Below are positions 1-53,718 of a stretch of 64,000 nt of DNA, piece by piece. The notes below the pieces were generated by a model. It worked only from the letters and a program-made list of their open reading frames with translations, was not told the DNA's origin and did not search any database. Origin of the DNA: Gammaproteobacteria bacterium (GTDB taxonomy: Bacteria; Pseudomonadota; Gammaproteobacteria; JAJDYQ01). Each line of letters starts with the position of its first letter. Position 1 is the first letter of the stretch. The stretch lies in NCBI GenBank assembly GCA_965214035.1, contig OZ243932.1, forward strand, positions 1,007,992-1,071,991, given 5' to 3'. A program made the position numbers and the translations under genes.

Positions 1-190
1 GCTGTTGCGGCTCACGCTCCCGCCGCAGTGGCTGAACCGCCGAGCCGGGACGGTGCGTCACCGGCTGTTCAGTATAGCCGGCAAGGTGGTCTGTCACAGC
101 CGCCAGTGGACGCTGAAGATTCAGTCAGAACATTATGCGCTCTTGTCAGAAGCCCTGTATCATACCCGACGATTCGCTCTGGCGCCCTGA
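1..190 (+). mobile_element. C-terminal fragment of an IS1380-family-like transposase (partial, runs off the window start)
   Basis: ORF 5..190 ends '...LFSIAGKVVCHSRQWTLKIQSEHYALLSEALYHTRR', which resembles the conserved C-terminus of IS1380-family transposases. GC is high relative to the AT-rich gene that follows. Confidence 0.35.
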
Positions 191-399
191 CTTCACACAG
201 TGAGCCGGTTCGCGCCACGGTCTGTCACTCCCAATCCGTCAAAATACTACATACAAACACATCACTGAATCTCTATCGCGGAATTTGGGGGTTTTATCGT
301 GCGCGAAAAATTCATGCAATCCAGCTAAAATAATGCGTTTATGTCACGCATGGTTAATATAGAATGTCGGGCCTTACACCCAATCAGATTTTCGAAATG

Positions 400-984
400 A
401 ACAAGCTCATCTGGCTTTTGATAGTGTTATTTCTTTCACACGAGGTGATCGCAAGTAAAAGCCCTGATCACACATCACAATATGTTGGCGAAGAAAATAG
501 AGAGATAAAGGCTCTCTCGGCAGCAGATATTGTTGAATTACAAAAAGGCGGCGGATGGGGTTTCGCTAAACCTGCGGAACTGAATGGTGTGCCGGGTCCG
601 GCGCATTTATTGGAAATGAAGGAAGAGATTTCGTTAAATCCGGAACAAGTATTTCAAATAGAAAAGATATATGAAGAGATGCGTTCTGAAGCGATTCCGC
701 TTGGAAATGAATATATTGATGCTGAAAGAAACCTGGATACCCTGTTCAAAACAGGAAGTATGAGCAGTGATTCCGTGCTGTTATTGATAGAACAAATAGA
801 AGATATTCGAGCGAAACTACGATACGTTCATCTATCCAGACATTTGGAAACGGTAGAGTTGTTGTCAGAAAAACAAATCAAACGATATAACAAATTACGC
901 GGATATTCTGAAGGTAGCGTCTGCGACAATATACCTGAGGGGCACGATGCCGAAATGTTCAAAAAACATAATGGCTGTGAATAG
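400..984 (+). CDS. Exported Spy/CpxP-like periplasmic protein (hypothetical)
   Basis: Likely start MNKLIWLLIVLFLSHEVIA gives a signal peptide. The mature part is helical with two L[ST]xxQ-like motifs (LNPEQ, LSEKQ), as in the CpxP/Spy/ZraP family. The gene is AT-rich compared with its neighbours. Confidence 0.4.
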   Translation, partial: NKLIWLLIVLFLSHEVIASKSPDHTSQYVGEENREIKALSAADIVELQKGGGWGFAKPAELNGVPGPAHLLEMKEEISLNPEQVFQIEKIYEEMRSEAIPLGNEYIDAERNLDTLFKTGSMSSDSVLLLIEQIEDIRAKLRYVHLSRHLETVELLSEKQIKRYNKLRGYSEGSVCDNIPEGHDAEMFKKHNGCE

Positions 985-1043
985 AGAGTAACCCGAATCC
1001 CGGTAATTGGAGACCGTAAACCACACTGGCAGGGCAACACAAT

Positions 1044-1061
1044 CCCCGCAAGCTTGCGGCT
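1044..1061. terminator. Perfect 14-bp palindrome ccgcaagcttgcgg between convergent genes; possible bidirectional terminator
   Basis: Palindrome at 1046-1059 lies between the 3' ends of the Spy-like gene (+) and tsaB (-). No strong U-tract follows. Confidence 0.25.
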
Positions 1062-1144
1062 TCATATCCGGTTTGCATGATCGCCCGACAACCGATTTGC
1101 CATGACACACTATTATTTTCACAAGCGAATCTACCGTGTTTCGT

Positions 1145-1852
1145 TCATTCCATTGATGGCTTCGCAGCGTTACGTTCCCGGATGGTTCGAGCAACTTTTT
1201 CACGGAGATAGACGGGTATGGCCTGTTCGGCGCTGACAGTTTGCTGTGCCCGGATCATTTTTTTTGCCAGGGGGATGGTGTCTCTGGCCAGCGGTATGGT
1301 TTCGGGGATTATTTTCATCAGGTGCCCCTCCAGCCTTTGCTGCATTTGCGGATATGCCGCCCACCCTGAACCTATGGCATACCAGTCACCTTCTGTGGGG
1401 AGAAACAGGTCATTGGGCGAGCTGACGGCTTCATCGCCGATATTTTGCATGGTGCCCTGTATCAGGGTGTAACTACCCCAATATACCTCCCCGATTCTGG
1501 CATCAAAGGCGGCACAGATCCGGGTCGCTGCACTGTTTTCACGGTAATAGCCCTGTGCCATGGCGGCCAGAGATGAAACCGGAGCAACCGGCAGATCAGC
1601 TCCCAGTGCCAGTCCCTGCACTACACCGGCCGCAATACGCAAACCGGTAAAACTGCCGGGGCCACGTCCAAATGCCAAGGCATCCAGTTGCTTGAGTTGC
1701 AACCCGGCTTCCGCCAGAACGGCCTGCACTTGTGGGAGTATCAGTCCGGTGTGGGCACGCGGCGCATGTTCTTCCCGCCATATCAGTTCATCATCAACCG
1801 ACAGCGCAACCGAGCAGTATTCCTGGGTGGTATCGAGGGCAAGAATGTTCAC
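1145..1852 (-). CDS. tsaB: tRNA threonylcarbamoyladenosine biosynthesis protein TsaB (YeaZ)
   Basis: N-terminus MNILALDTTQEYCSVAL..., Kae1/YeaZ fold, 235 aa, typical TsaB length and motifs. Confidence 0.9.
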   Translation of the reverse strand: MNILALDTTQEYCSVALSVDDELIWREEHAPRAHTGLILPQVQAVLAEAGLQLKQLDALAFGRGPGSFTGLRIAAGVVQGLALGADLPVAPVSSLAAMAQGYYRENSAATRICAAFDARIGEVYWGSYTLIQGTMQNIGDEAVSSPNDLFLPTEGDWYAIGSGWAAYPQMQQRLEGHLMKIIPETIPLARDTIPLAKKMIRAQQTVSAEQAIPVYLREKVARTIRERNAAKPSME

Positions 1853-1930
1853 AGGATTGTCTCTTCGGTCAAAGTTACTTCTTTTTTATCAGTTCCATCA
1901 AGTTCTGGTTGAATCTCAATTTAACCATTT

Positions 1931-2875
1931 CTACAGCAATGACAGCTGAAACGAAGACAGTTCACTTTCTGCTTCACCGGTTGCAACACCTTTCAACCTT
2001 TCCAATGACCTCGAATGATATTCCAGATTAGCCTCGAAACCGATAAATGCTCTATCCAGCATTCTGGCAGCTAACGCCGTTGTCCCACTGCCCATGAATG
2101 GATCAAGCACGATCTGATTTTCCCTTGTTGTGAGTTTGATGAGATATTTGATCAGGGCTAATGGTTTCTGTGCCTCATGAATTCTTGTCTCATTTTTGCC
2201 GAAACCAAACTCAGGCATATTGGTGGGACTCGATCCATTAAACTGGCATTCACCTGTATTCATGGCACCCACTTCGTTTTCAAGGATATTGTCTGTAATG
2301 GTGCCGCCGACTTTATAAGGTTTCATGAACCATGCTATGGGTTCCCAGACAGGTGCAAGATTACCGAGTCGCCAGCCTTTCCATTTTTCAGCCTCTTTTG
2401 TTAAGCCTCTGCGTTGCAGAACAATACTGACCCTTTGTGCCCGATGATGGGCAGATGGTTTTTTCCACGCCAATGTATCCTTCAAAAGAAATCCACTATC
2501 TTCAAACGCATTGATCGCTCTATGAATGGTTCTTCTTGCACCAAACACCAATAAAAAAGAACCATTCTTCATTTTCGGATAAATTTTAGTCGCCCAGGCT
2601 TTGCACCACCCCTGATATTCCAATCCGATGTTTCTATCGGCCTGTGACCAACCATTAATTGGTTTGCCTCTGCGTTTAAATCCCGACTTTCCCTTTTGTG
2701 CCGGCGATTTTCCAAGCAGAGCAGAATTCGTATTGCTATGCAGCACATCCCAGTCATCCAGGCTGATTCCATAGGGAATATCCGATAAAAACAGATCGAT
2801 ACTACAATCGTCCAGGTCAGGCAAGTACTGCAGGCAGTTGCCTAAAGTTATTTTATTAATGTAATCACTATTCAT
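1931..2875 (-). CDS. Beta-class site-specific DNA methyltransferase (N6-adenine or N4-cytosine)
   Basis: N-terminal motif IV 'SDIPYG' (D/SPPY-like) precedes C-terminal motif I 'DPFMGSGTT'. This is the beta-class amino-MTase order, 314 aa. Confidence 0.85.
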   Translation of the reverse strand: MNSDYINKITLGNCLQYLPDLDDCSIDLFLSDIPYGISLDDWDVLHSNTNSALLGKSPAQKGKSGFKRRGKPINGWSQADRNIGLEYQGWCKAWATKIYPKMKNGSFLLVFGARRTIHRAINAFEDSGFLLKDTLAWKKPSAHHRAQRVSIVLQRRGLTKEAEKWKGWRLGNLAPVWEPIAWFMKPYKVGGTITDNILENEVGAMNTGECQFNGSSPTNMPEFGFGKNETRIHEAQKPLALIKYLIKLTTRENQIVLDPFMGSGTTALAARMLDRAFIGFEANLEYHSRSLERLKGVATGEAESELSSFQLSLL

Positions 2876-2883
2876 CTGGTTCT

Positions 2884-3731
2884 TTACCCAAGACCCAAAA
2901 GCCCGTTATCGACAATAGAACATATAGCTCGAATTTTGTTATCGAGTTTGTTCGCCTTTAGTACCTCCCTGATTGCCTGCTCTTTAGTAAATCTCATTAT
3001 TCGCTCTCGCTCAGCAGCCAAAAATTTAAGGGCTTCATATCTCGATATGTGAATTGACTCTACAGATGCTTTCTTTTCCTCTTGCCAGACAGCGCTGATA
3101 CTATGATCAAAATCAAGAATTTTCCGATTAACTGCCTGCCAGTATGTATTAGCATCCTTTGATGGATTCATTGACTCCACAGTTCTAAATACTTCATGCA
3201 CCAACTCCATTGCATTATCTACACCACTGAGCATTGCATATCGAGCGAATACTGCAAGGTGTGTGTATGTACCAATTAATACGGACCTCGCTCCGGCTTG
3301 CTGGTATATCTGACTTCTGCGAGCAGGCAGCTGGTAAACCGGGCATACAACCATCGCATAAGGCTTACCATGCTTCCAGCCATCTACTTGCCTGGACTTT
3401 AAAATCCTTTTGATTCTTTGCCGTACGGCTCAATCTGAATGCCTTTGCATCTGCCACAAAGCTGTAGTTTTCATTAACACACTCGACATCAGCTACATCA
3501 GCCCGCTCTGTCAGGACTGAGCTATTAAAGCCTATAGCTTTATAAGCTTCATGTATTACAACATCAGTGTATTTTGAATAAAGCTTTTCCTCACTCGTAT
3601 CGTGGTGATAGCTCTCCGGGATGGCTCCACATAATGGCAAATGACCTAATAGTGCATCAATGCCACTGTCTTCAATTTCTTTATCGATTTCATCCTCGAT
3701 TTTTTCTGCGCCTACTCCAAAATCAGGGACT
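2884..3731 (-). pseudogene. Putative cognate restriction endonuclease, frameshifted, no canonical start
   Basis: Two adjacent same-strand ORFs in different frames (3365..3640 and 2884..3354) lie directly upstream of the MTase. The first carries a PD-(D/E)xK-like segment 'VADVECVNE...DAK'. Its reading frame runs upstream to 3731 with no ATG. Confidence 0.35.
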
Positions 3732-3905
3732 TATATACTTAACTCCACTGATTGTCCCTTCGGTTTTTATGCTGATTAGAGTTGAGCAGAAATTAGACAT
3801 TAGCCCTTGATGATGGCAAGTTGCGTGCACAATAGGGGTATTTTTTAGTTTTATTTCTATAGCACCACATTGACAATGCACTTGATATTCTTTTGACTCT
3901 TTCAT
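3723..3905 (-). CDS. Small Cys/His-rich hypothetical protein (60 aa), possible truncated GFA-like zinc-binding domain
   Basis: An AAGGAAAAA Shine-Dalgarno precedes ATG at 3905. The sequence MKESKEYQVHCQCGAIEIKLKNTPIVHATCHHQG... has CxCG...C.HH spacing reminiscent of GFA/CENP-V domains but is too short for a full domain. Confidence 0.2.
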   Translation of the reverse strand: MKESKEYQVHCQCGAIEIKLKNTPIVHATCHHQGLMSNFCSTLISIKTEGTISGVKYISP

Positions 3906-3935
3906 GTTTTTCCTTGTGTGGCCTAACGCCATGCT

Positions 3936-3965
3936 CAGCGGCGCGCGCCTTTGGCGCGTCCGCTG
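3936..3965. repeat. GC-rich REP-like hairpin (13-bp stem with one bulge, loop TTTG)
   Basis: cagcggcgcgcgcc-tttg-ggcgcgtccgctg sits in an AT-rich intergenic stretch. No clear U-tract follows. Confidence 0.4.
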
Positions 3966-3975
3966 AAGCAAATTG

Positions 3976-4203
3976 TTAAGTGTCTTCTTTTTTGATTGTT
4001 CTTACATCCATCAAGCACTTCTTGCCCCTCGGCGTCAGAATCCAGAATAACGCCATCGTACCTCCCCTTGTTTGTAGACTCTCAACTTCAACAAATCCCA
4101 ATGCCATAAGCTGGAGTTTAACTGCTTGAACAACCTCTTCTTCTACTTTTGTACTGAAATACCTATCTGCGTTTGGTAGTGTCTCAGTTTGAAATTTCTT
4201 CAT
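3976..4203 (-). CDS. Hypothetical 75-aa protein
   Basis: ORF directly downstream of the HerA-like fragment. I recognise no family. Confidence 0.25.
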   Translation of the reverse strand: MKKFQTETLPNADRYFSTKVEEEVVQAVKLQLMALGFVEVESLQTRGGTMALFWILTPRGKKCLMDVRTIKKEDT

Positions 4204-4216
4204 ATTTATAATGTGG

Positions 4217-4681
4217 TCATGGTTTACTCTGTTGCCTTAATGCTTGAATGGCTTCTTCCAGAGTATTTTTGTCTTTTTCCTTTGACCATTCAGTCCATAT
4301 ATCAATTGTTGCACTAGCAGGCTTTATTTTTGGCTCTGCCATTTTAATTCTGCTGGGTAATAAGCAAGCATCGCCAATGATCAAGCACTCTCCAATATCT
4401 AAAATAGGTAACAACTCTGAAAAGCCTCCTAAGCTGTCAGGAAATAGCCGTTTTATTACATTTTGGTCATCAGGGTTTGTAAGACGCATGGCGACAAAGT
4501 TGCCACATTGACTTAAGACGGTTTTGCTGACATCAGCAGGCCGTTGACTGATAACAATAAGTGAAACGCCATGTTTTCTCCCTTCCTTTGCTATACGCTC
4601 GAAGTTAAAAAGCCCTTTTGTTTCAATACTGTCTTTAGTATTGTTGGGAATATACAAATGTGCCTCATCACGCGGATTCAA
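4217..4681 (-). pseudogene. C-terminal fragment of a HerA/FtsK-like (DUF87) ATPase, truncated at its 5' end by IS remnants
   Basis: 'GVSLIVISQRPADVSKTVLSQCGNFVAMRLTNPDDQNVIK...LPILDIGECLIIGDACLLP' matches the C-terminal half of HerA-type ATPases. The N-terminal ATPase core with Walker A is absent, and an IS30 fragment abuts the upstream edge. Confidence 0.55.
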
Positions 4682-4965
4682 CTCGCAAGTGCAATCTGTA
4701 GTTTGATTCCTGAAAATGCCTCATTAGGCGTTTTAATGCCAAGACATTTTCCAGGTCGATTATTCAGTCTATTCATGGCTTGCTCAATTTCTCTGTGGGT
4801 AATGGTTGTCAAGTCACCCCCCTTTGGAAAGTACTGTCGGATGAGTCCATTGGTATTTTCATTCAGGCCACGCTCCCATGAAGCATAAGGATGGGCAAAG
4901 TAAAACCGGGCGTTGAGCCTGTTCAGGGCGATAACCACGAAGGCCCGTATTGCGCTGAAGCTCAC
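4678..4965 (-). mobile_element. IS30-family transposase, C-terminal fragment
   Basis: 'YFAHPYASWERGLNENTNGLIRQYFPKG...MNRLNNRPGKCLGIKTPNEAF' is the conserved C-terminus of IS30-family DDE transposases. The catalytic core and N-terminus are missing. Confidence 0.7.
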
Positions 4966-5186
4966 GGCTAATGGTGGATCGACTTCAACCTGACATCATG
5001 GCTATCCCGGATTGGTTATGGCCGGCTTTCTTCAGGGCATCAATCCGGTATCGTTGTTCCTGGGTAAGCTGTTTGTATCTCATCGTGCTCCTCTTTCTTG
5101 GCAGAATGGGAAAGCTGTGAATCATACAGCAGCTTACCCTATCGCCAACTCGTCAAGAGTTGCACTTACAAGTTGAATTCAGGCAT

Positions 5187-5645
5187 CTATATTATACAAG
5201 AATAAACAGAAATGCCGGTAGTGTCACAGTTTGAATTTTTCTTCTTATACGGTCCGCGCTTCTTTCCTTTCGGTTCTCTGTTTTCTATCAGATCGACAAT
5301 AAAACCCATATTGTGCAGCGTATCGGTTAATCCCGCTTCCATTGCCGGCGTGACTTTCAATGTCTTGTGAATACGGCAGAAATTATAAAACATGAAGTAC
5401 AGGGACAACGCATGAATATGGTTGTCGATTTTCTGACTGAATGCGTTGGTCAGCCGGGTGAACCGGCGCATACTCATACGCATGGTCAGGTTATGGCGTT
5501 CAACATAGCTGGTTGATACATGCTCAAACTCAGGCCGACCGATAACATGTTCACGGTGTGCGCCGATGCAAGCTGACGGGCTGTAACTCCGTTGTTCATC
5601 CGCCGGCATGTCGCCATACAACTTGACCAACCAGGCATCATCCAC
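5187..5645 (-). mobile_element. IS1-family-like transposase, C-terminal fragment
   Basis: 'YVERHNLTMRMSMRRFTRLTNAFSQKIDNHIHALSLYFMFYNFCRIHKTL' follows the InsB-like pattern R.NL..R...R.T.AFSK plus the C-terminal Y.NF.R.H motif. There is no full-length ORF. Confidence 0.5.
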
Positions 5646-5696
5646 ATCAGAACCAAAAGCTTCCTCTGCCTGCTTGTATGATATGCAGTCACTGTT

Positions 5697-8600
5697 TCAT
5701 TCATCGGCATACTGCCCGTAGCCCAGCCCACGCACATGCGGTTCCTGGTGCAGCAGCAGTCGCAGCCGCGTGAGCTCGGCGACGTCCCACCCCATCGCTT
5801 CTGCCACGGCTTCATCCCAAATGCGGCGCACTTCGCATTCACCGTCGCGGAATTGCGGTACAACCATGTCCTTGGTGTGGTTCCAACAATGAGCCAACCT
5901 GTCAACGAGAACATTATCGGAGAGATCAGGCAAACGGATGGTTTTCAGGCCCGCAGGGTTGTAATTTGGAAATTCCAAAGTCTTTCCAGGATTGCGCAGC
6001 AGTTGCAACCGCCCCGGGGTTGAGTTGAGAAAGACAGCCGCGGCCTTCGCCTGATTGAACGAGATATTCGGCACCGGCAACCAACCCACGCCGACATACC
6101 GTTCCTCTTGTGCCACGGCCGTCAAACGGCCTGTGCTGGTGCGCTGGCCGCCCGTCACCAGCAGGTGGGAGATTTGGGTCACAATCCGACTGGCATTGTC
6201 AGGGTGGTGCTTGCCATCCACGCCGGGAACCTCAATCCATTCATCCTGTGGAACATGCCTTTGGGGCGCTTGATGCTGATCAGGCATGCCTCGAATGGTC
6301 CGTTGGGCCTCGGCGGACTTGGAATAAAAGACCGGGAAAGCGCCCGGTGCATCTGCGTCAGCCTGCCTGAATTGACCCCGCCTACCCCCACCTAACACTG
6401 CGGATGGCACCATGTTCTGTTCTTCCATCCGAAGAAGCGACTTGTGAGTGGAGATATCGAACGCCGCATTGGCCAGTTCTGGTGATCGAAACACCACCGC
6501 CGTCCAATCGCCAGCCTCAATGCGCTCTGCAGACCAGTAAGAGACCTCGCCCCAACCGTCTGCCATCAGCCCTTGTTCACAGTCCAGCAAGCATCGATGA
6601 AAATCGGCAGCCTCACCATCGTCTGCCGGCATTCTGTCAAGATTGATGAACCGCGTTGGCGGCTTGTCGCCGGCATACCACCGACGCATCACCACGATGC
6701 TCTCGTTGATAGAGGTATGCTGGCTCAGGTTGATGTTCTGAGGCTGGTGCGAGGTCAATATGGTGTGTATATGGAAGTGCTTGGCAAGTGCAAGCCGCTC
6801 GCGCTGACCGGATGGGGTCGTGAGCGCTATGGTCGGGTTAATCATCGTCAGAGTTCCATCGGACCGCTCTACGCAGTGGTCTGCAAGACCAACGAAGAGC
6901 GGTCCGATGGAATTCTTGTCCACGAACTCCATCAGACCGGGGTCGGATTGCGTGAGTTTTTGCTCCATAAAGTCGGCGCGGTCGCGCAGAGCCGTCTGCG
7001 TTTCAGCGGGAAACTTCTCGCCCATCTTGGAACGGTTAGTGAACGGTGGGTTCATGATGATAATGCGCGCTTCCTTAACTGCATCTACGGTATCTTCCAG
7101 TTCGGTGTCGTCCGTCGTCTCCCACGTCGCCCGGGAACCGATGGCATCGTCACCCAAGTCCAGCTCGTTCGGTCTTTGCACGATAGCCCGTTGCCCCAGC
7201 AGCTCGAGTGTGCCAGCGTAGACTCGGTCTGGAGCATGCTTGTCGGGACCGTAGGGCATGAGATGCAGTCCCATTCTCCGGTAGCTGACTCTCTGGTTGC
7301 CCGCGGTTAATTGTGATGCAGCCAGTTGTAGCGACACCGGATTGATATCCAGCCCTTTGAGGGTGTCTTCGACGGCAATTTTCTGAAGCTGATTCAGTGA
7401 TTCGTCGTCTGCGCCATTATCGCGCGCCCTGCGCTTCATGTCGGAAAGCATGGCGGCAAGCAGCGTGCCGCTGCCACATGCCAAATCCACAATCTTGTGC
7501 CGCTGCCAGACTTCAGGGTCAGACCAGTCCTGGTCTCCGCAGGCGTCGAGCGTCAATCGCGCAGCGAGCGAGGCGGCAACGGGTCTGGTGAAGAACGCGC
7601 CGTCGGATGCCTGGTTACCCATGACGCGATTAAAAAGCGGCCCGGCGTGGTCGGCGCCCATATCCGCGTAGGTTTCTGCAATGCGCTCGGCTTCCGCAGC
7701 GAGATGATGCAGGGCGCGTTCGAGCCCGGCAGTCTTTCCTGTCGTCTCAACGGCGTAGATGGCCTCAAGGGCGGGTTCAAGCACCGGGCGGAAGTCGTGG
7801 CGCATGATTCGCTCCCACTCCCGGCTTATCTTCTGCACGACATTAGCCTGATTCTTGATCTGGGCGAGGTCGCTGATGCCCGACAGCCAGCCACCGTTAC
7901 TAATGCGCTGGTGCAGCATGGCGGCATTCATCATCAGCAGCGCAGCGATGGTGCAGCCGTCCGCCTGCTCCTTGCCTGTCTCCTTGAGCCGGTCGAGTCC
8001 GAAATGCTGGTTTAGCGCGGGCAACAATTCATCCGCACGCATGTGGTGCGCCGCTTCGGTCACGCTCGATTCCAGTATATTCAGATCGCGTATCACCCGA
8101 TTGTCGCTCAGCCCGGACTTCGAGAGCAGGTTCATCTTGATGGCGCTGCCATGATCTTCCAGCCCGCTCAGCTTGAGCATGAGTTGCCCCTGTTCCTCCG
8201 CTCGTTCCGTGGCGGTCTTGCGGGGTTTGCGATGGCTGCCCGGCTTCACGCGATTACCGCCCTCACCGGTATTGATCATCTTGCCGGCTTTGGCTTTGGT
8301 TCGCTGTATGTTCACAATGCCCCGCGCCTCGCCTGCTTTTGGCTTGTCGCGGGTTATGGAGTCCTCGCGCAGTTCAACCGTTCCATCCTTGTTTTTCTTC
8401 CCTGTGAGGACTTGCGTCAGCTCCACCGCGCTGTAATCAGCGGGTTCTTCACGGATACGCTGTATGCCAGTCGCAGCGCGGGTCTTGCCTTCCAATGCCT
8501 GTTCGACCGCTGCCTGCGCGGCGCCGGGAGGCCCCTCGACTTCGCCGTACTGTATGCGCATGCCTTCACCCATCGCGACCGCCACCAATGTGCGTTCCAC

Positions 8601-10697
8601 CGGCGGTGGTTTGGGAATGTACAGGTGCAAGAGTTCCTCAAGGTTTTCCTCGATACGCTGGTCGTGGGCGCGCAATGCGAGTAGTATCTGTCCCAACTCC
8701 TGCCACCCTTCCTCCGGGCCGCTGGTGCTCAGCCATTTCTCAGGGTCGGCAGAGGGTGGAAACACAATAGGGCAGACGATGTAGCCCAGCTCCTTGTCGG
8801 GCGCGGTCCGCATCGCTCTTCCGACGGCTTGTACGACATCAATGGGGCTCTTTCGAGCTTCCAGGAACGCCACCGCACTCAATGACGGCGAATCCGTACC
8901 CTCTCCGAATATGCCCACATTGATGATGCCGCGAGGGCTCGCCGCGTCAGCGGCAGCCAACCGTCCCTTCGCGGTTTCACGCGCCGCGGCGTTGCTCGAA
9001 GCGTCCAGGTGTTCGAGGCTGTAATCGGATGCGGCCCTGCCGTCCGCGTTCTCGCTGAGCCAGCGTGAGACCCAATCCTTCACGTTATCGGTCTGGAGGT
9101 CCGCCGCCATGTTCTTCGACTTGTCCACCGTATTCATGAAGGCGATGCACGAGCGGATGTCCACTTCTCTGCCTTGAGTCGCTCCGCCCATCGTGAGAGC
9201 AAACGCCAGGCCCCGAAGATAGTCGATGGTCGTCAGCTGGCCGCGCCCTGTGCTTTTGGTGGCCCTGGCTAGGTCGTTCGCCGTCTTGAACGCCTCGGGG
9301 TCGTTGACGCCCATAGCGATGATACGGTAGTCGGACAGCCAACGGTTACGGACTGCTTCCAGGTAGCTCTTGCGGTACAGTTCCACCCCGAAGGTGGTCT
9401 CGTCGTCCATCGAGCGCACTATCCAGTCTGGATTACCGGTGGCGCGCTTGACATCATAGATGCGCGGCGTTGCTGTTTGATAGATGCGGTACGTAACAGG
9501 AAACCTGTCGCTGTCATGGCAAATCGTGAAGTCTCGGAGACGCTTTTCCTTTTCGTTTGCGGCGGCAGACCTGGAGTTCCTGCGCTTTAGCCCTGCCGTC
9601 CTGTGTGCTTCGTCGGCAACCATGACACACGCCCTGACATCGGCGCTCAACAGGGCTTCCGATACCTTGGTGCTGCTCTGGTAAGTGCCAATGAGAACCT
9701 TGATCCCGTTGTCGATAGTGCTCTGGCGCATCCAGTCGACTATTTCGCCGGCATCGGTGGTCACCTTACCCTTCACTTCGGAAGCGCTGACATTACTGTT
9801 ATCGACGGTCGGATCAAGTGTGGTGTTGCGGCGTCCTTCTTTCCTGGGGGCATAGCCCGCCGTGACGTCCGAGCAGACTGCCAGCACGTCCAGGGAAACT
9901 GAAGCGTGTTGCAGGCATTCACGCCTTATCTGGGCAACCAGCGCGATGGACGGACACAGCACGATGGATAGCTTGCCCGGAGGCGTCAGTTCTTCGATGA
10001 TCCGGAGCGATATACGAGTTTTTCCTGTCCCGCAGGGCAGGATGATTCTACCTCGGGCCTCACCTATCGGTAGTCCACCGCTCTCCGAGCGTTCCTGTTC
10101 CCTGAGTATGCGGACACTGTTGGCAACGACTTCGTTTTGCATGCAGTTTTTTGTCTGCAGCCGTTCTTCGCCGTGGGGGTTCGGTTGGCAGTGTTCGCAC
10201 TCCCCGGATGCGGCTTGTGCCTGCCGCTGCTGAAGAAGATCGCTGGTGATGTTGACCAGCTTGAGGGGCTTTGGGTGCATTGATGCTGATTGCGTCGCGC
10301 CACTGGCAAGTGGATTATTGCCATTGGTAACGATCCAGCGCTCGGCCCAGGAGTCTGAACCGGACGCAGCCGCGAATTTGGCTATCTCGTTGCTATGGAT
10401 TGGGCCGCCGCGCCCCTCGTCGTCAAGCCGGCGCGACTTGCACTGGATTGCGATGTATTTCCCGTCGTTGCGACGCACGGCTACGGCGTCTATTCCCACA
10501 TCCAGCTTGGTGGTTTTAGGAAAGTGTTTCTTTCTATCGGGCCACTTGTCCCAGTGCCAGCACTCCGCGATGTCCCACTCCTTTATGAAAGGAGCGGAGT
10601 CCACAGTAATGTCTTCCAGCCATTTGCCATTGGTCTCCTGCGAGTTAAACTCGGCTGTGTCCTTTAGCGCCTTTTCGATGGTCTCTAAGCCGGTCAT
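5697..10697 (-). CDS. Single-polypeptide restriction-modification enzyme with Type ISP layout: Mrr-like nuclease, SF2 helicase-like ATPase, gamma-class N6-adenine methyltransferase, target-recognition domain
   Basis: 1666 aa. The N-terminal PD-(D/E)xK Mrr-like region reads 'KLDVGIDAVAVRRNDGKYIAIQCK'. Walker A is 'ILPCGTGKT' and the DEAH box is 'VMVADEAHRT'. MTase motif I 'VDLACGSGTLLAAM' precedes motif IV 'IIMNPPFTNR' (NPPF), the gamma-class order. About 400 C-terminal residues are consistent with a target-recognition domain. Size and domain order match LlaGI/LlaBIII-type enzymes. Confidence 0.85.
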   Translation of the reverse strand: MTGLETIEKALKDTAEFNSQETNGKWLEDITVDSAPFIKEWDIAECWHWDKWPDRKKHFPKTTKLDVGIDAVAVRRNDGKYIAIQCKSRRLDDEGRGGPIHSNEIAKFAAASGSDSWAERWIVTNGNNPLASGATQSASMHPKPLKLVNITSDLLQQRQAQAASGECEHCQPNPHGEERLQTKNCMQNEVVANSVRILREQERSESGGLPIGEARGRIILPCGTGKTRISLRIIEELTPPGKLSIVLCPSIALVAQIRRECLQHASVSLDVLAVCSDVTAGYAPRKEGRRNTTLDPTVDNSNVSASEVKGKVTTDAGEIVDWMRQSTIDNGIKVLIGTYQSSTKVSEALLSADVRACVMVADEAHRTAGLKRRNSRSAAANEKEKRLRDFTICHDSDRFPVTYRIYQTATPRIYDVKRATGNPDWIVRSMDDETTFGVELYRKSYLEAVRNRWLSDYRIIAMGVNDPEAFKTANDLARATKSTGRGQLTTIDYLRGLAFALTMGGATQGREVDIRSCIAFMNTVDKSKNMAADLQTDNVKDWVSRWLSENADGRAASDYSLEHLDASSNAAARETAKGRLAAADAASPRGIINVGIFGEGTDSPSLSAVAFLEARKSPIDVVQAVGRAMRTAPDKELGYIVCPIVFPPSADPEKWLSTSGPEEGWQELGQILLALRAHDQRIEENLEELLHLYIPKPPPVERTLVAVAMGEGMRIQYGEVEGPPGAAQAAVEQALEGKTRAATGIQRIREEPADYSAVELTQVLTGKKNKDGTVELREDSITRDKPKAGEARGIVNIQRTKAKAGKMINTGEGGNRVKPGSHRKPRKTATERAEEQGQLMLKLSGLEDHGSAIKMNLLSKSGLSDNRVIRDLNILESSVTEAAHHMRADELLPALNQHFGLDRLKETGKEQADGCTIAALLMMNAAMLHQRISNGGWLSGISDLAQIKNQANVVQKISREWERIMRHDFRPVLEPALEAIYAVETTGKTAGLERALHHLAAEAERIAETYADMGADHAGPLFNRVMGNQASDGAFFTRPVAASLAARLTLDACGDQDWSDPEVWQRHKIVDLACGSGTLLAAMLSDMKRRARDNGADDESLNQLQKIAVEDTLKGLDINPVSLQLAASQLTAGNQRVSYRRMGLHLMPYGPDKHAPDRVYAGTLELLGQRAIVQRPNELDLGDDAIGSRATWETTDDTELEDTVDAVKEARIIIMNPPFTNRSKMGEKFPAETQTALRDRADFMEQKLTQSDPGLMEFVDKNSIGPLFVGLADHCVERSDGTLTMINPTIALTTPSGQRERLALAKHFHIHTILTSHQPQNINLSQHTSINESIVVMRRWYAGDKPPTRFINLDRMPADDGEAADFHRCLLDCEQGLMADGWGEVSYWSAERIEAGDWTAVVFRSPELANAAFDISTHKSLLRMEEQNMVPSAVLGGGRRGQFRQADADAPGAFPVFYSKSAEAQRTIRGMPDQHQAPQRHVPQDEWIEVPGVDGKHHPDNASRIVTQISHLLVTGGQRTSTGRLTAVAQEERYVGVGWLPVPNISFNQAKAAAVFLNSTPGRLQLLRNPGKTLEFPNYNPAGLKTIRLPDLSDNVLVDRLAHCWNHTKDMVVPQFRDGECEVRRIWDEAVAEAMGWDVAELTRLRLLLHQEPHVRGLGYGQYADE

Positions 10698-10734
10698 ACT
10701 ATATTATGCCCCATTATTCAGAGATTGACCAACC

Positions 10735-10932
10735 TCAGGAAAGCCTGGACAAAGCCCGAACAATGGATGTTTTACCCATACGCTCACGGAAAAGATTGGC
10801 TTCTCGTTTCATGGCTTTATTGGCCACTGCAACATCGGCCTGAAACCGTTCGGAAGACAGTAAATTGATATAGCTCTCCATGACCCTGGAAGCGGGCGCG
10901 AAGGAATCTTCACATCCATGATTAAAGCGCAT
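10735..10932 (-). CDS. Hypothetical 65-aa ORF immediately upstream of the Type ISP gene
   Basis: ORF only. I recognise no family. It may be a gene fragment. Confidence 0.15.
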   Translation of the reverse strand: MRFNHGCEDSFAPASRVMESYINLLSSERFQADVAVANKAMKREANLFRERMGKTSIVRALSRLS

Positions 10933-11070
10933 ATTGGCTTCTTGGGTTATCTGACGTTACCGACCTGAAAGGCACCCACCAAACCCGAAAAAGCCCCTTC
11001 CACCGTACAACTGAAACAAGACTGGAAACGGGTCAAAAGGTTTGTGCAGGCTCGTAGTGGACTTTTCACA

Positions 11071-11113
11071 AGCAGGAAAAACAAAAATTCGGGGCATTAA
11101 GTATATAATTCCC
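11071..11113 (+). repeat. Dispersed 43-bp repeat, copy A (AGCAGGAAAAACAAAAATTCGGGGCATTAAGTATATAATTCCC)
   Basis: Matches the inverted copy at 51544..51586 with 2 indels. Shorter TTAAGTATATAATTC-like cores recur at 53524-53539, 3731-3742 and 44201-44211. Confidence 0.7.
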
Positions 11114-11205
11114 CAAAATTACTGCTTAAGCTGCCAATTCTGTCAATCCAGTAACCTCTGGCCTGAATTTGTTTCTGAGTTGTAACTTCTATATCCATTT
11201 GACTA

Positions 11206-11430
11206 TCATGCATGGTTTTTGATGACCAGCGTCTTGATCATCGATGTACGCCTTTGGCGCATTTGAGATAATACTTGCCGGTTCGTATCAGGCCGCTTGT
11301 GATTGTAATGCCAAAGCCAGCATGCGACAAGCTCCTGCATACTCAAATCGGCATTGTGTGAGTCGGCTATAACATACTGCTCGACATAAGCATTTTGCTG
11401 CGGCTTGCCCGATTCAATAATTAACTGCAT
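11206..11430 (-). mobile_element. IS3-family transposase (OrfB/integrase core) C-terminal remnant
   Basis: 'SGKPQQNAYVE...WLWHYNHKRPD' corresponds to the rve-domain tail GKPxQNAxIERFN...W..YNxERPH. The ORF starts at an ATG immediately after the dinG TGA stop, in the same frame. Confidence 0.45.
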
Positions 11431-13386
11431 TCAGGCCGAGTTGGCTGGCAGCTCTTTTTGATGGAAGAACTTTTTCACATCTTCGATGTTGGTTGTCATT
11501 GGCATGGGTGGCAGGCTATCGAGAAATATTTTCCCATATCCCCTGCTTCGGCATCGAGGGTCGCACAGCATCAGTACGCCGGTATCTGTTATGTCGCGAA
11601 TCAGACGCCCTACTCCCTGTTTCAGCATAACCACGGCGGCTGGTATCTGGTATTCAAAGAAGGGGTTTTGTCCGCGCCGCTGCATGGCATCAAGCCGTGC
11701 CTGCATGACCGGATCGCCGGGGGAGGCAAAAGGCAGTTTGTCTATAATAACGCAGGACAGCGCCTCGCCGCGCACATCAACACCTTCCCAAAAGCTGGCC
11801 GTGCCGAGCAGTATGGCATTGCCGTATGTCTTAAAGTCCTTCAGCAGCCTTTGCCGGGGGGCTTCGCCCTGCACGAGTATCGGATAATCGACATGGTCTG
11901 CTATCTGTTGCGCAGCGATCTTCAGTGCCCGATGGCTGGTGAACAGCATAAAGGTTCTGCCTCCGGCCGCTTCAATGATGGGCAGCGATTGTATGCAGAC
12001 TTCACGGGTATAAGATGAGTCTGAGGGAGCAGGCAGACCCATCGGTAAATAATTAAGGCTGTTGTTTTCATAATCAAACGGGCTGCCCAGTATCTGGGTG
12101 TCCGGTTCATCCAATCCGAGACGATCATTAAAATGTTCAAAGCTGTCGCCGACGGCCAGAGTAGCGGAGGTGAAAATCCAACTGGCGTTCATTTCTGCCA
12201 TATAGCCCTGGAAAATTTCCGCGATATTTAACGGTGTGCTGTGCAGCCCGAACCCCCGGCGGGAGGTATCGGCCCATCGCACCATTTCGTTTTCATCACC
12301 TGCATCTTCATCTGCTTCAGTGCGGGGATCTATATGGCTGATACGTTCCAGCAGATTGAGGCTGCGCTGATAGCAGCTACCCAGCCCCTTGGAACGTTCG
12401 GATTCATCGGATAACCAGTTACTGACCGCCGTCAGACTTTCTTTTGCCACATCCAGAAGCCGGGTAAAGCCCTGCCTGCCCTGCAAATCATTCCAGGAAA
12501 GCCGCTGACCATCCTGCCCCATGCTGATCCGTAAGTCGGCGATAGATTTTTCCAGTGTATCCAGTGTGTCGGGCAACTCGCTCTGGCTGCCGGACTCTTT
12601 GATGTGTTCAGATCGCGTATCGGCGCAAAGATTATGTAGTTGGCGCGAGGTCAGTGAAAGGCCAAAGAAACGGGTAGCCACTTCCGGTAGTTGATGCGCT
12701 TCGTCAATAATAAATATGTCGGCACCCGCCAGAATATCACCGAACCCCTGTTCCTTGAGCGCCATATCGGCACAGAACAGATGATGGTTAATAACCACCA
12801 GATCGGCTGCAAGCGCCTCCCGTCGTGCCTTCAGAACATGGCATTTTGCATAGTCTTCACACTCCGAACCCACACAGTTTTCAGTTGTTGAGGTTACCAG
12901 CGGCCAGATAAATGATCCCTCTTCCACATCATCGACCTCGGCAATATCACCGGTCAATGTGCGGCCTGCCCAATCATTGATCAGCTGAAATTCATGCTGA
13001 TGACGCCGGCTGCGGGTATCGCCTGCACTGCGATTGACATTCAGTCGGTGGGTGCAGAGATAGTTTGCGCGCCCTTTCAGCAGAGCGACGGTCACGGGCA
13101 CATTGAGTGCGTGGCGAATGACGGGCAAATCCTGATGGAATAACTGATCCTGCAGGTTTCTGGTACCCGTCGCTATGATAGTGCGCTTGCCGGAGAGCAT
13201 CGCAGGTACCAGATAGGCGAAAGTCTTGCCAACGCCGGTTCCGGCTTCAGTCACCAGCACGGCACCTTCATCAATAATGGTACGGGCGATGCGATCAGCC
13301 ATTTGCTGCTGGGCCTCGCGTGGCGCAAAGCCGGCCAGAGATTCACTGAGCGCACCATCACCAGAAAGATATTCTGACGCAGACAT
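11431..13386 (-). CDS. dinG: ATP-dependent DNA helicase, DinG/YoaA family (Rad3-like, Fe-S)
   Basis: N-terminus 'REAQQQMADRIARTIIDEGAVLVTEAGTGVGKTFAYLVPAML', a DEAH-like box 'IFIIDEAHQL', conserved cysteines. At 651 aa it is closer to YoaA than to canonical DinG. Confidence 0.85.
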   Translation of the reverse strand: MSASEYLSGDGALSESLAGFAPREAQQQMADRIARTIIDEGAVLVTEAGTGVGKTFAYLVPAMLSGKRTIIATGTRNLQDQLFHQDLPVIRHALNVPVTVALLKGRANYLCTHRLNVNRSAGDTRSRRHQHEFQLINDWAGRTLTGDIAEVDDVEEGSFIWPLVTSTTENCVGSECEDYAKCHVLKARREALAADLVVINHHLFCADMALKEQGFGDILAGADIFIIDEAHQLPEVATRFFGLSLTSRQLHNLCADTRSEHIKESGSQSELPDTLDTLEKSIADLRISMGQDGQRLSWNDLQGRQGFTRLLDVAKESLTAVSNWLSDESERSKGLGSCYQRSLNLLERISHIDPRTEADEDAGDENEMVRWADTSRRGFGLHSTPLNIAEIFQGYMAEMNASWIFTSATLAVGDSFEHFNDRLGLDEPDTQILGSPFDYENNSLNYLPMGLPAPSDSSYTREVCIQSLPIIEAAGGRTFMLFTSHRALKIAAQQIADHVDYPILVQGEAPRQRLLKDFKTYGNAILLGTASFWEGVDVRGEALSCVIIDKLPFASPGDPVMQARLDAMQRRGQNPFFEYQIPAAVVMLKQGVGRLIRDITDTGVLMLCDPRCRSRGYGKIFLDSLPPMPMTTNIEDVKKFFHQKELPANSA

Positions 13387-13462
13387 GCGATCTTTATCTC
13401 ACAATCCCGACGTGAATCGGGCCGGAAGCGAATTGGTAATACCTTTCAGAAAAGCTGTCAGC

Positions 13463-13489
13463 TTGATAATAAAAATTCTTCATTATCAA
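13463..13489. promoter_or_regulatory. Inverted repeat TTGATAAT-N11-ATTATCAA in the dinG upstream region
   Basis: Perfect 8-bp arms lie about 80-100 bp upstream of the dinG start. The GATAAT/ATTATC hexamers resemble Fur-box half sites but the spacing is not canonical. No LexA box (CTGT-N8-ACAG) is present. Confidence 0.25.
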
Positions 13490-13514
13490 TAAGATAAAAT
13501 ATACTTCTACAGTA

Positions 13515-16462: not shown

Positions 16463-16668
16463 GGTTGCTGAGGATAGCGTATGTGTTCAGGCGAGCCTGC
16501 TTCGAGTCCGATCGGACCATTCATTTCAATATGCGTATGAAATGAGATGATACATGAAAACCAGATATGGGACGTGATATGGAGGCAGCCACCCAATCCA
16601 CTATTCCATTTTGTGCAACCTCAATACCGGCGTCCTGCACTTTGCCCCCGCCAGCTATTACACTTTAC

Positions 16669-30961: not shown

Positions 30962-38554
<7,593 letters not shown>

Positions 38555-51543: not shown

Positions 51544-51586
51544 GGGAATTATATACTTAATGCCCCCGATTTTTGTTTTTCCTGCT
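51544..51586 (-). repeat. Dispersed 43-bp repeat, copy B (inverted relative to copy A)
   Basis: The reverse complement reads AGCAGGAAAAACAAAAATCGGGGGCATTAAGTATATAATTCCC. Confidence 0.7.
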
Positions 51587-51729
51587 TACCTTCTGACCAG
51601 CTTCCATCGTTGTTTCAGTTGTGCGGTGGAGGGGGCTTTTTCGGGTTTGGTGGGTGCTTTTTCAGGTCGATAACGGACGATTTGTCGGACAGCACTTTGA
51701 AAGTCTTTTAGCGATGGGCGTTTGCTCAT
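51586..51729 (-). CDS. Small basic ORF (47 aa) with a strong SD, ending inside repeat copy B
   Basis: AGGAGAGAAAAGT-ATG. The sequence MSKRPSLKDFQSAVRQIVRYRPEKAPTKPEKAPSTAQLKQRWKLVRR has its TAA stop overlapping the first bases of the repeat. Confidence 0.2.
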   Translation of the reverse strand: MSKRPSLKDFQSAVRQIVRYRPEKAPTKPEKAPSTAQLKQRWKLVRR

Positions 51730-51821
51730 ACTTTTCTCTCCTTTGGAATGATCCATATATCTATACTCAATCCCGAAAAATACAATGCGCACTGACTTTG
51801 CTACAATAAGGAGGCTTTGAT

Positions 51822-52498
51822 ATGGAAACCGGAGGAAAGATGCCGAGCAAATTCCATAAAACAGGTTCTCAAGAGACAAGTCATTCTGCGGGGAGTCCCT
51901 TCCGTGCTTTTTTGACCCGACTAGGCATCCGAGCAGCAAACACTTGTGAGAAAGGACCGGATTTGAAGAGATTGTCCAATGGTTTATTGAGAAGGATAGT
52001 ACCCAGTCCCGCCATTTTTCGCAGGTATGGATGTGGGATAAATGGCCCCACAATGAGGGGCAACGTGATACAGGGATAGACCTGGTTGCCCAAAAACGTG
52101 ATAGCAGCGAATGGGTCGCCATTCAATGCAAGTTTTATCGTGAAGGCGTGGCATTGCAACGCGATAATATTGACTCATTCCTGGTCGCTTATGAGCAGTC
52201 GCACAACGGAGAAAATTTTGCCGAAGGTATCGTGGTATCGACCACGAATCACTGGGGCAAAAATGCAGAAGCAGCCTTGAAGGGGCGCGATAAACCGGTC
52301 GCTCGCTGGGGGATCGATGTTTTTGAAAACTCCTCTATTGACTGGGAACGTTCTTCACTCGCCTCGCTTCGGAGAAAAGAGACCAAACAACTGCGTGACT
52401 ATCAACAGCAGGCTTTTTTTGTGGTCATTAAAGTATGCTCTCTATCTCACCCGCATATTGCCCATAACCCAAACCACGCACATGCGGTTCCTCATTAG
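51822..52498 (+). pseudogene. Truncated and frameshifted N-terminal fragment of a second Type ISP-like enzyme (Mrr-like nuclease domain only)
   Basis: 'METGGKM..SQET' is followed, after a frameshift near 51930-51950, by 'WMWDKWP...DTGIDLVAQKRDSSEWVAIQCKFY...LRDYQQQA'. This parallels the N-terminus of the 5697..10697 protein (WHWDKWP...VGIDAVAVRRNDGKYIAIQCK). It ends just after the helicase Q-motif. Confidence 0.6.
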
Positions 52499-52503
52499 GA
52501 TGC

Positions 52504-53412
52504 TCAATGGCATGCCGAGAACTCGACATCCAAACGGTATTGCACCAACTCTATGGGAGGATTTTTTGCCGCCTCCTGTTGCACATCAGAGTCTAGTTTT
52601 CGTGCGCCACCATGAATGAGTATGCCTCGCACAGGTTGTTTGCTTTCGCACTTATATCGTTCGAGGTAGTGGCGTAGCTGTTTTACATGTTCAGTTGTGG
52701 GTGAGTGTTGTTTACACTCAACGATAACTGCCTGATCGCTGCGGTCGATGAGGAGCACATCCGCTCTAGTTTTATCATCAAACACTCGTTCCCTGACTTT
52801 CTGGCTTGGATGCGTGAGCAGTCTGTCTTCCAATCGATAGGGATATGCAGCAATGTAGTCAGAAAGTGCTCGCTCGGAGCTGAATTTGGTCGTTAGTAGC
52901 CCAACCCAATTCGCCGGGTTATTCATGATTTCAACAATCTCATCCCAGCTCCTGGAGCGAAGTTCACAAACTGTCGTTCGAATTTCCCATCGGTTCAGGT
53001 GCATTGATTCAGGAATCTTCACTACCATGTCACGGTCATCGGGACCCACCGTAAGGTCCCACCGGACAAAAATCCGCCGACCCATTTCCCCATCGGAGTC
53101 TTCTTCCGTTTTAGGAACTAATGGATCCCAGTCTTCATCTTCGATAGCTTTGCCCGTCACCTCACCGACACGCCCTAATCGATGACCTCTGAGTTGAACT
53201 ATCACTTTGTCCCCAACAGAAATTCTTTCCAGTGCCTTTCGGACTCGCCTCCAGCCTATACCCCCATCTGTTTCTCCACGCAATTTATACCCCCACGAAC
53301 CTTTCCAGCCAACAGCGACACACTGATTCAAGAACCAGCGTTGCCACATGCCTGGATATTCATTCTCCATGCAATTAACTTTCCAGACAGTCATACTGAT
53401 ATGCCTCACCAA
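52504..53412 (-). CDS. Two-domain protein with a PUA/EVE-like N-terminus and a PD-(D/E)xK nuclease C-terminus; candidate modification-dependent (Type IV-like) restriction nuclease
   Basis: The N-terminus 'TVWKV...YPGMWQRWF...VAVGW...GDKVIVQL..HRLGRVGEVTG...RIFVRWDL' follows the EVE/PUA-like pattern. The C-terminus 'ADVLLIDRSDQAVIVECKQHS' is a D..D/E.K nuclease signature. No MTase partner is present. Confidence 0.45.
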   Translation of the reverse strand: MVRHISMTVWKVNCMENEYPGMWQRWFLNQCVAVGWKGSWGYKLRGETDGGIGWRRVRKALERISVGDKVIVQLRGHRLGRVGEVTGKAIEDEDWDPLVPKTEEDSDGEMGRRIFVRWDLTVGPDDRDMVVKIPESMHLNRWEIRTTVCELRSRSWDEIVEIMNNPANWVGLLTTKFSSERALSDYIAAYPYRLEDRLLTHPSQKVRERVFDDKTRADVLLIDRSDQAVIVECKQHSPTTEHVKQLRHYLERYKCESKQPVRGILIHGGARKLDSDVQQEAAKNPPIELVQYRLDVEFSACH

Positions 53413-53718
53413 TAAGTATAAAGTGAATAGGATAGTTGGGTTATGACTTATATGTCAAGGCCGGCAGCGTGAAAACCGTCGATATCGTCAAGGGATTGCT
53501 TGAATTAACCGATTTTTTGTACAATTAAGTATATAATTCGCCTATAAAAACCAGACTATTGACTGTAATTTATTGTTTTTATCTATCTTCCATCTCGGTC
53601 AGGTCTTCAACACCTGCCATATCTGCAAGTGCTTTAGTAAATGGCGTTTTTGTAAAAATTAAAAAATAAAATTAATGCTGTTCGGCGAGGTGATACTTCT
53701 GGCTAACCAAGTGTGTCA

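Follow-up and report, generated by a model that had tools for sequence, protein, structure and literature searches.

Restriction-modification (R-M) units bounded by terminal inverted repeats, flanked by 8-bp duplications and matched by empty sites in related genomes were reported by Furuta, Abe and Kobayashi in 2010; the cases include a type IIP system of X. oryzae and a type IIG system of N. gonorrhoeae, the latter with a degenerate COG3677-type transposase gene (PMC2853133). The IS1595 family of insertion sequences (IS) is characterised by 8-bp duplications (PMC8101967), and the concept of the passenger-carrying IS ("transporter IS") is credited, in passages of PMC4611040 and PMC8101967, to Siguier, Gagnevin and Chandler (2009). 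Type ISP enzymes combine an Mrr nuclease, an SF2 ATPase, a coupler, a methyltransferase and a recognition domain in a single chain (PMC4666363). R-M units with inverted repeats and 8-bp duplications, passenger-carrying IS1595 elements and Type ISP enzymes are all already known. Here we analyze a 64,000-nt stretch of a gammaproteobacterial contig (OZ243932.1; hereafter the window), in which an island at positions 1931-11430, between the core genes dinG and tsaB, carries a HindIII-family R-M gene pair, a gene for a predicted Type ISP-like enzyme and fragments of several IS.

The island very probably consists of two layers, an older HindIII-type R-M pair with an IS3-family remnant and a newer 7.4-kb transposon-like element, here called el1, that brought the Type ISP-like gene. 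The closest relative, the metagenome-assembled genome (MAG) JAJDYQ010000070 (L001; 92% nucleotide identity), has the order dinG, IS3 remnant, nuclease gene (R), methyltransferase gene (M) and tsaB, with no counterpart of window 3724-11114. By blastn, window positions 1015-3723 and 11115-23384 match adjacent L001 segments that overlap by 5 nt. When positions 3718-11113 are removed, the window R gene aligns to that of L001 over all 918 nt, 840 of them identical, with one indel, an extra A after nt 413 (about window 3389) in the window copy only. The reading frame of R in the window is not intact: 7,396 bp interrupt it at codons 26-29, and this +1 frameshift comes in addition. L001 encodes an intact 305-aa RE_HindIII protein (1.3e-100) followed by a 314-aa methyltransferase (MTase). 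R is intact across the junction in L001, and the block has its own repeats and an 8-bp duplication; therefore window 3726-11113 is a single insertion into codons 26-29 of R. The Type ISP-like gene is the newest arrival at the locus, and the element that carried it in put the resident nuclease gene out of action.

The two ends of el1 are imperfect inverted repeats (3726-3753 and 11086-11113) with the core GGGAMTTATATACTTAA, and el1 is flanked by CAAAATCA and CAAAATTA, where the empty site of L001 has TAAAATTA once. Four copies of the 17-nt core of the repeats are present in the window, where 0.19 would be expected, and the second pair bounds a second element of the same family, el2. Tn3-family or Tn7-like ends were considered with an apparent 5-bp duplication (AAAAT), and were dropped on the evidence of the IS1595 transposases and the 8-bp flanks. 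The block had no match among plasmids by megablast, and the terminal repeat was not found in viral contigs.

The ends belong to the IS1595 family. The 23-mer at the right end, GGGAATTATATACTTAATGCCCC, also occurs at contig ends in one metagenome (L081-L084), where it bounds an IS on both sides, and the 311-aa open reading frame (ORF) of this IS contains Zn_ribbon_IS1595 and DDE_Tnp_IS1595 domains (7.5e-44). The 17-nt core is found at both ends of two further units, L094 and L092, both of which encode IS1595 transposases. Like IS1595 elements and their passenger-carrying relatives, el1 has termini that start GG(G), terminal inverted repeats shared with the family and an 8-bp duplication of an AT-rich target. 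Complete members encode a transposase with Zn-ribbon and DDE_Tnp_IS1595 domains plus passenger genes, whereas el1 has no transposase and its interior is mostly debris of other elements; at 7.4 kb it is also well above the 2.9-4.6 kb of the complete relatives examined (L092 and L094). The L094 unit has a perfect duplication, AAAAATTT, and splits an FAA_hydrolase gene.

A small ORF next to the terminus accompanies these ends. The 160 bp inside the right end of el1 are 74% identical to the left end of el2, where an intact 47-aa ORF reads towards the terminus. The copy in el1 is truncated and frameshifted, with the C-terminal two-thirds left, and the 46-aa ORF of L094 matches it at E 0.007. A full HMMER scan of 1.84 billion representatives found eight homologs, all of 44-62 aa, and the end ORF is thus a real small-protein family. 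The possibility that the subterminal 160 bp are the 3' end of a transposase gene was rejected, because all homologs are free-standing proteins of 44-62 aa. The IS1-like fragment in el1 was also rejected as the element's own transposase: it is of the IS1 family, not IS1595, and does not lie beside a terminus.

The cargo beside these ends varies. El1 carries the Type ISP-like enzyme, and el2 carries a fragment of a Type ISP-like gene and a NucS-like nuclease. L094 and L096 encode two C5-methylases and an HNH nuclease, and L089 encodes an HNH nuclease. In L091, one such end adjoins an HTH_17 gene, a 923-aa MmeI-like enzyme, a DEAD helicase, a T5orf172 protein and a 940-aa SMC-like (SMC_N) ATPase; its second terminus was not found within 10 kb. 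A 46-nt stretch at the last codons of the Type ISP-like gene (5701-5746) matches 52447-52492 in el2 at 85%, and the el2 side encodes a reading frame that ends in EPHVRGLGYGQYAGEIESIL before its stop codon; with the shared terminus as reference, this frame lies on the opposite strand. An inversion or a separate capture could account for the match.

As in the units of Furuta et al., R-M genes in el1 lie inside an inverted-repeat unit with an 8-bp direct repeat, and an empty site defines the insertion. El1 departs from those units in that complete relatives link its ends to one specific transposase family, it carries a Type ISP-like single-polypeptide enzyme, it went into the nuclease gene of another R-M system, and a conserved 46-47-aa end ORF marks its family.

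Coordinates of the features described here; positions refer to the window unless another sequence is named.
Feature	Position	Strand	Evidence or remark
tsaB, left-flank core gene	1145..1852	-	Pfam TsaD 8.6e-31
M, intact beta-class N6/N4 DNA methyltransferase, 314 aa	1931..2875	-	Pfam N6_N4_Mtase 2.5e-38; PADLOC MTase_II 2e-116; nuclease partner
R pseudogene, HindIII-family endonuclease, codons ~29-305	2884..3717	-	+1 frameshift; RE_HindIII matches in both ORF pieces
Left 8-bp target-site duplication, CAAAATCA	3718..3725	.	flank comparison with L001
Possible GFA-family (Cys-rich) N-terminal fragment	3723..3905	-	runs into left repeat; Pfam GFA 2-26 of 115, E 0.0027, below cut-off
el1, non-autonomous IS1595-type transposon-like element, 7,388 bp	3726..11113	.	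absent from L001; inverted repeats and duplication
Left terminal inverted repeat, GGGACTTATATACTTAA	3726..3742	+	17-nt family motif
GC-rich hairpin, single	3936..3965	.	dG -27.1 kcal/mol, z -3.1
75-aa ORF downstream of HerA fragment	3976..4203	-	no match in Pfam, PADLOC or NCBIfam
HerA C-terminal ~150 codons, SIR2-HerA type	4217..4681	-	PADLOC HerA 425-574 of 576, 5e-73; NCBIfam HerA_antiphage_2 8.6e-47
IS30-family element, internally deleted, both inverted repeats kept	4676..5178	-	19-nt repeats 4676-4694 and 5160-5178, 89% complementary
IS1-family transposase C-terminal fragment	5187..5690	-	abuts Type ISP-like stop codon; tblastn 52-58% identity to annotated IS1 proteins, 1e-46
Type ISP-like single-polypeptide R-M gene (predicted), intact, 1,666 aa	5697..10697	-	Mrr nuclease, SF2 translocase and amino-MTase motifs, variable C-terminal region
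65-aa ORF upstream of Type ISP-like gene, possibly not a gene	10735..10932	-	no family match
End-ORF remnant, frameshifted, of the 46-47-aa family	10955..11090	+	74% nucleotide identity to el2 end; translation KAPTKPEKAPSTVQLKQDWKRVKR
Right terminal inverted repeat, GGGAATTATATACTTAATGCCCC	11091..11113	-	exact 23-mer ends of IS with IS1595 transposase (L081-L084)
Right 8-bp target-site duplication, CAAAATTA	11114..11121	.	flank comparison with L001
R gene start, first ~28 codons	11114..11198	-	parted from remainder by el1; reconstruction and alignment to L001
IS3-family transposase C-terminal remnant	11206..11430	-	common to L001; rve_3 7.9e-6, just below Pfam cut-off
dinG, right-flank core gene	11431..13386	-	Pfam Helicase_C_2 1.9e-43
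el2, same family, 1,998 bp	51544..53541	.	terminal repeats alike; between trpS-like gene and GIY-YIG gene
el2 end ORF, 47 aa, intact	51589-51729	-	
el2 Mrr_cat_2 fragment	52031-52498		resembles start of Type ISP-like gene
el2 NucS_C-like ORF, 302 aa	52504-53412		
Related unit, 4,572 bp	L094		terminal inverted repeat (TIR), 308-aa IS1595 transposase, two DNA_methylase genes, 410-aa HNH_2, 53-aa ORF, 46-aa ORF, TIR
Related unit	L096		the L094 unit again
Related unit, 2,940 bp	L092		split IS1595 transposase and small ORFs; perfect 8-bp duplication TAATTTTG
Related end	L089		HNH nuclease gene overlaps 47-aa ORF, adjoining terminus
Related end	L091 (ENA ERZ25070917 ctg105949), 134-10189		el2 end module, 99% identity over 519 nt

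The older layer contains a type II R-M system of the HindIII family, with an RE_HindIII nuclease gene adjoining that of an amino-methyltransferase. The two ORF pieces of R in the window match the RE_HindIII profile at positions 136-284 (2884-3354; E 4e-39) and 43-124 (3365-3640; E 3e-41). The MTase is assigned to the beta class because motif IV (SDIPYG) comes before motif I (FMGSGTT) in the protein. The pair resembles the HindIII type IIP system in the RE_HindIII fold family, the conserved ADAK.FRLSRTAKNQKDFKV catalytic block, the order R then M and the beta-class amino-methyltransferase. It differs in that R is split and frameshifted, and in that the match of the L001 R protein to R.HindIII (PDB 2e52) is distant (E 9e-33), so AAGCTT is not established as the site. 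Avoidance of AAGCTT was considered as evidence of HindIII-type specificity and rejected, the signal being too weak and the identity to R.HindIII too low: the site occurs 6 times in the 64 kb against 12.9 expected, rank 20 of 64 palindromes in a sample that is too small.

Selection on the locus was estimated from Nei-Gojobori dN/dS values against L001 (dS about 0.17-0.33). R has a dN/dS of 0.16 (dS 0.29), against 0.08 for M, 0.09 for tsaB and 0.14 for dinG; purifying selection therefore acted on R through most of the divergence, and its loss is recent. M has the same length in L001 (314 aa), is still under constraint and is becoming an orphan methyltransferase, functionally without its nuclease partner. 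The IS3 remnant is part of a stretch 92% identical to L001, which places it in the older layer, and by tblastn it matches annotated IS3 transposases on plasmids.

The flanking genes are conserved between the two genomes, with 93.6% amino acid identity for TsaB and 95% for DinG. We compared the junction in further relatives, collected by a DinG scan with one genome per species (80 loci from uncultured or little-studied Gammaproteobacteria throughout, 72 of which hold both dinG and tsaB). In about 60 of these 72, tsaB begins 0-130 bp after dinG, and adjacency is therefore the ancestral state; the interval in the window is supported as an insertion between genes that are adjacent in most relatives. 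Ten relatives have a gap above 200 bp. By-eye inspection of the three widest gaps found no recognisable defence genes among the inserted ORFs. With mostly short gaps and no defence-like ORFs seen by eye in the three widest, the dinG-tsaB junction is therefore not a general defence hotspot. All substantial ORFs in the ORF listing from 1145 to 13386 are on the minus strand, and GC content forms a mosaic: it is 40-45% at 2000-5250, reaches 57-63% in the Type ISP-like gene and is about 50-56% in the core genes on either side. The island gave no match in Rfam and tRNA scans, and a promoter and terminator scan gave counts not above those of shuffled sequence.

The main cargo of el1 is predicted to be a Type ISP-like enzyme. 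The N-terminal region contains an Mrr-family nuclease (Pfam Mrr_cat_2 1.8e-11, aa 39-136), followed by a motor with Pfam ResIII and Helicase_C domains, a Walker A motif (GTGKT) and a DEAH box. With phmmer, aa 64-696 match the PDB entries for LlaBIII (1e-43) and LlaGI (1.3e-42), and a profile search reaches 2.5e-54. Methylase motif I and NPPF appear downstream in gamma order, with a Pfam N6_Mtase match of only 0.0024. The protein shares with Type ISP enzymes the single polypeptide of ~1,600 aa, the N-terminal Mrr-family nuclease and the SF2 helicase-like motor; putative methyltransferase motifs I and IV (NPPF) and a variable C-terminal region follow. Membership of the Type ISP class would imply ATP-driven translocation, collision-dependent cleavage between head-to-head sites and methylation of one strand.

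With an E cut-off of 1e-10, more than 1,300 database proteins are homologous to the Type ISP-like protein. Identity is 64-100% among the best 120, those with full coverage being about 1,650-1,820 aa long, and the annotated ones among the 120 are mostly labelled "DEAD/DEAH box helicase family protein". Across 26 aligned homologs, nuclease residues D66, D70 and Q85-x-K87, the motor motifs GTGKT and DEAH, DLACGSGTLL (motif I) and NPP(F) (motif IV) are invariant. A stretch of ~600 nt (5896-6501) is unalignable to the nearest relative, L085, which is otherwise 87% identical in nucleotides; this would be as expected of a recognition domain. Homology to L085 ends at the last sense codon (5700), and IS1-family sequence begins with the stop codon. 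The nearest relatives have ~100 additional C-terminal residues. The predicted protein is probably complete in function all the same, because many family members end naturally at GYGQYADE(VEE).

The remainder of el1 is a collection of fragments. The HerA tail derives from a SIR2-HerA system because its nearest homolog (83%) adjoins a SIR2_2 gene in L086; the search for HerA homologs returned short or fragmentary proteins only. The fragment matches anti-phage HerA models, and no SIR2 gene is present in the window interval and no ATPase core is left (HerA positions 425-574 only), hence there is no SIR2-HerA system. In L086 (579-6795), a SIR2_2-HerA pair is embedded in a type I R-M locus, and a reverse-transcriptase gene comes after it. 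The IS30-family element consists of an N-terminal helix-turn-helix region with an in-frame stop and a C-terminal fragment (4678-4965) that matches NCBIfam transpos_IS30 at positions 209-267 of 267 (E 2e-24). The Pfam match of the IS1-like piece (5187-5645) is weak (5e-4). The 82-aa ORF that runs into the left repeat has a GFA match only below threshold. We also found a 23-nt direct repeat (91%) between 4175-4197, at the start of the 75-aa ORF, and 5217-5239, in the tail of the IS1 fragment, which may be a recombination junction.

This inventory agrees in large part with the preliminary description, which was made from the letters and the ORFs of the island. The SIR2-HerA, IS30, IS1 and IS3 genes are non-functional remnants, as had been proposed, and the HerA and nuclease homologies on which the proposal leaned are upheld by profile searches; the IS identities agree with profile and tblastn matches. 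The MTase class, its path to an orphan enzyme, the unbroken Type ISP-like frame and the placement of the insertion between tsaB and dinG were all read correctly, as was the junction TGAATG, in which the ATG of the IS3 remnant directly follows the dinG stop. Two readings held in part. The nuclease partner had been called frameshifted, and it is, but its first 28 codons are in addition placed 7.4 kb away. The hairpin had been called REP-like (repetitive extragenic palindromic); the 30-nt hairpin is real, and the label fails because there is one copy in the 64 kb with 3 mismatches allowed.

The overall history proposed in that description was different: one long-standing 9.5-kb defence island, eroded in place by independent IS30, IS1 and IS3 insertions and deletions, with the Type ISP-like gene as a chance survivor. 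The presence of several unrelated IS fragments beside a truncated SIR2-HerA system speaks for such erosion, the IS30 remnant (with no target duplication and two unrelated flanks) fits an IS-mediated adjacent deletion, and decay inside the 7.4-kb block may well postdate its arrival. However, L001 is without the whole block and has R intact across the junction, the block carries inverted repeats specific to its family and is flanked by a duplicated 8-bp sequence that is single in L001, and selection on R is only mildly relaxed. Erosion in place is largely refuted for the block as a whole, and we regard this history as unlikely. It had also been proposed that the same genes, if intact and contiguous in relatives with no IS fragments, would mark the decay as a sequencing artefact; of the genes concerned, only the R-M pair is intact and contiguous in a relative, and the difference is real biology. 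An artefact would mean that the block was mis-joined into R at a short repeat or that the frameshift is a sequencing error, with the R-M system really intact. The assembly is of the metagenome type, with a contig of 2.5 Mb, the 17-23-nt repeat recurs at 51.5 kb in the window, and an isolated indel like the extra A near 3389 could be an error. Both junctions nevertheless run precisely into the halves of R with a duplicated 8-bp target, a signature of transposition and not of a chimeric join, and the insertion alone would disrupt R even if the frameshift were an error; we consider an artefact extremely improbable.

The direction of the change can also be questioned. Precise excision of inverted-repeat elements between target duplications is known, and el1 could have been present in the common ancestor and lost from L001, restoring the frame of R and the single 8-bp target. 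Such a loss needs the exact removal of 7,396 bp and an interrupted R that stayed free of other lesions. The dN/dS of the window R over its dS indicates that R was selected during most of the time since the split, and L001 does not share the extra frameshift; together these points make excision in L001 improbable.

Several observations weigh against insertion of an IS1595-type unit with a Type ISP-like cargo. L001 is the sole close relative at hand for this locus, so that the choice between insertion in the window and precise loss from L001 is made by parsimony. The two copies of the duplication, CAAAATCA and CAAAATTA, differ at one position, the left repeat of el1 fits the family over 17 nt only, and the flanks of el2 match at 5 of 8 positions with no clear target duplication. 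A tblastn search with three IS1595 transposases found no such transposase or remnant in el1 or in the 64-kb window; el1 and el2 are therefore non-autonomous, and mobilisation would have been in trans. Three homologs of the Type ISP-like protein in other genomes are solitary and without these repeats, so the cargo is not an obligate passenger. The C-terminal 970 aa of the protein are unlike LlaGI and LlaBIII in sequence and have no match to them or to any solved structure, profile search included. The last 700 aa gave a poor AlphaFold model (pLDDT 54), for which Foldseek finds a weak match to the type IIG enzyme BpuSI (1.5e-3). The best PADLOC model for the protein is labelled type IIG and covers the N-terminal 600 aa only. 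With these points counted, we still hold the two-layer account, with a transposon inserted into R, to be very likely.

On the two-layer account, events very probably took the following course. Before the window and L001 lineages diverged, an IS3-family element (now a 225-nt remnant) and the HindIII-family R-M operon lodged between dinG and tsaB. In the window lineage only, an IS1595-type unit then entered the AT-rich 8-bp target CAAAATTA at codons 26-29 of R. Complete members of the family combine an IS1595 transposase, R-M or other defence cargo and the 46-47-aa end ORF, and el1 has lost its transposase. A transposase encoded elsewhere and supplied in trans may have recognised the GGGAATTATATACTTAA termini and made an 8-bp staggered cut, whose repair would yield the flanking direct repeat. 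The IS30, IS1 and HerA debris may have been collected before or after arrival through adjacent deletions. The insertion parts the promoter and the first 28 codons from the rest of R, with the +1 frameshift as a second lesion. With M intact and under purifying selection, the host would keep methylation without the matching nuclease, and continued methylation by M would make the loss of R harmless. The incoming Type ISP-like enzyme may now supply restriction with a different specificity. The genes of the island are co-oriented with dinG and tsaB, which would allow read-through into tsaB.

Other features of the window lie outside this history. Beyond tsaB, window 1-1014 and L001:14969-21941 differ: the L001 segment contains a type III CRISPR-Cas module (a Cas_NE0113 protein, a RAMP protein, a 958-aa Cas10-sized ORF and a 392-aa ORF), and the window segment is low-GC sequence unrelated to it, in which a 206-aa ORF weakly matches LTXXQ. 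Some 6-bp palindromes are scarce in the whole window (GTATAC 0 against 8.1 expected, GTTAAC 0 against 6.0, ACGCGT 0 against 5.1, GTCGAC 1 against 7.6), which may be a footprint of other restriction systems in the lineage. The ORF listing also includes a 2,530-aa ORF on the minus strand at 30962-38554.

Possible novelties of el1 and its family are the conserved 46-47-aa end ORF, the variety of defence cargo beside these ends, and the insertion of the vehicle of one restriction system into the nuclease gene of another. More tentatively, the ends and the small ORF may mark an undescribed IS1595 subgroup specialised in restriction and defence genes, and the ~1,650-1,800-aa proteins, a family of >1,300 members, could form a single-polypeptide R-M type of their own, because their methylase and recognition half is unlike that of LlaGI and LlaBIII in sequence. 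If there is such a subgroup, the small end protein would be a factor in transposition or in control of the cargo, and el1 would show one defence system displacing another by way of its nuclease gene.

The locus gives a base-by-base view of turnover at a defence locus, in which a restriction-enzyme transposon inserts into the nuclease gene of an R-M system that was already there. One event would leave a protected orphan methyltransferase and swap the restriction specificity of the cell. The MTase and the Type ISP-like gene are predicted to be active, and the HindIII-family nuclease and the HerA, IS30, IS1 and IS3 pieces are dead. The 17-23-nt terminal repeat and the small conserved ORF are tied to IS1595-type transposons with R-M cargo and are useful for annotating similar units in MAGs, where "DEAD/DEAH box helicase" is at present the only label on the large enzyme.

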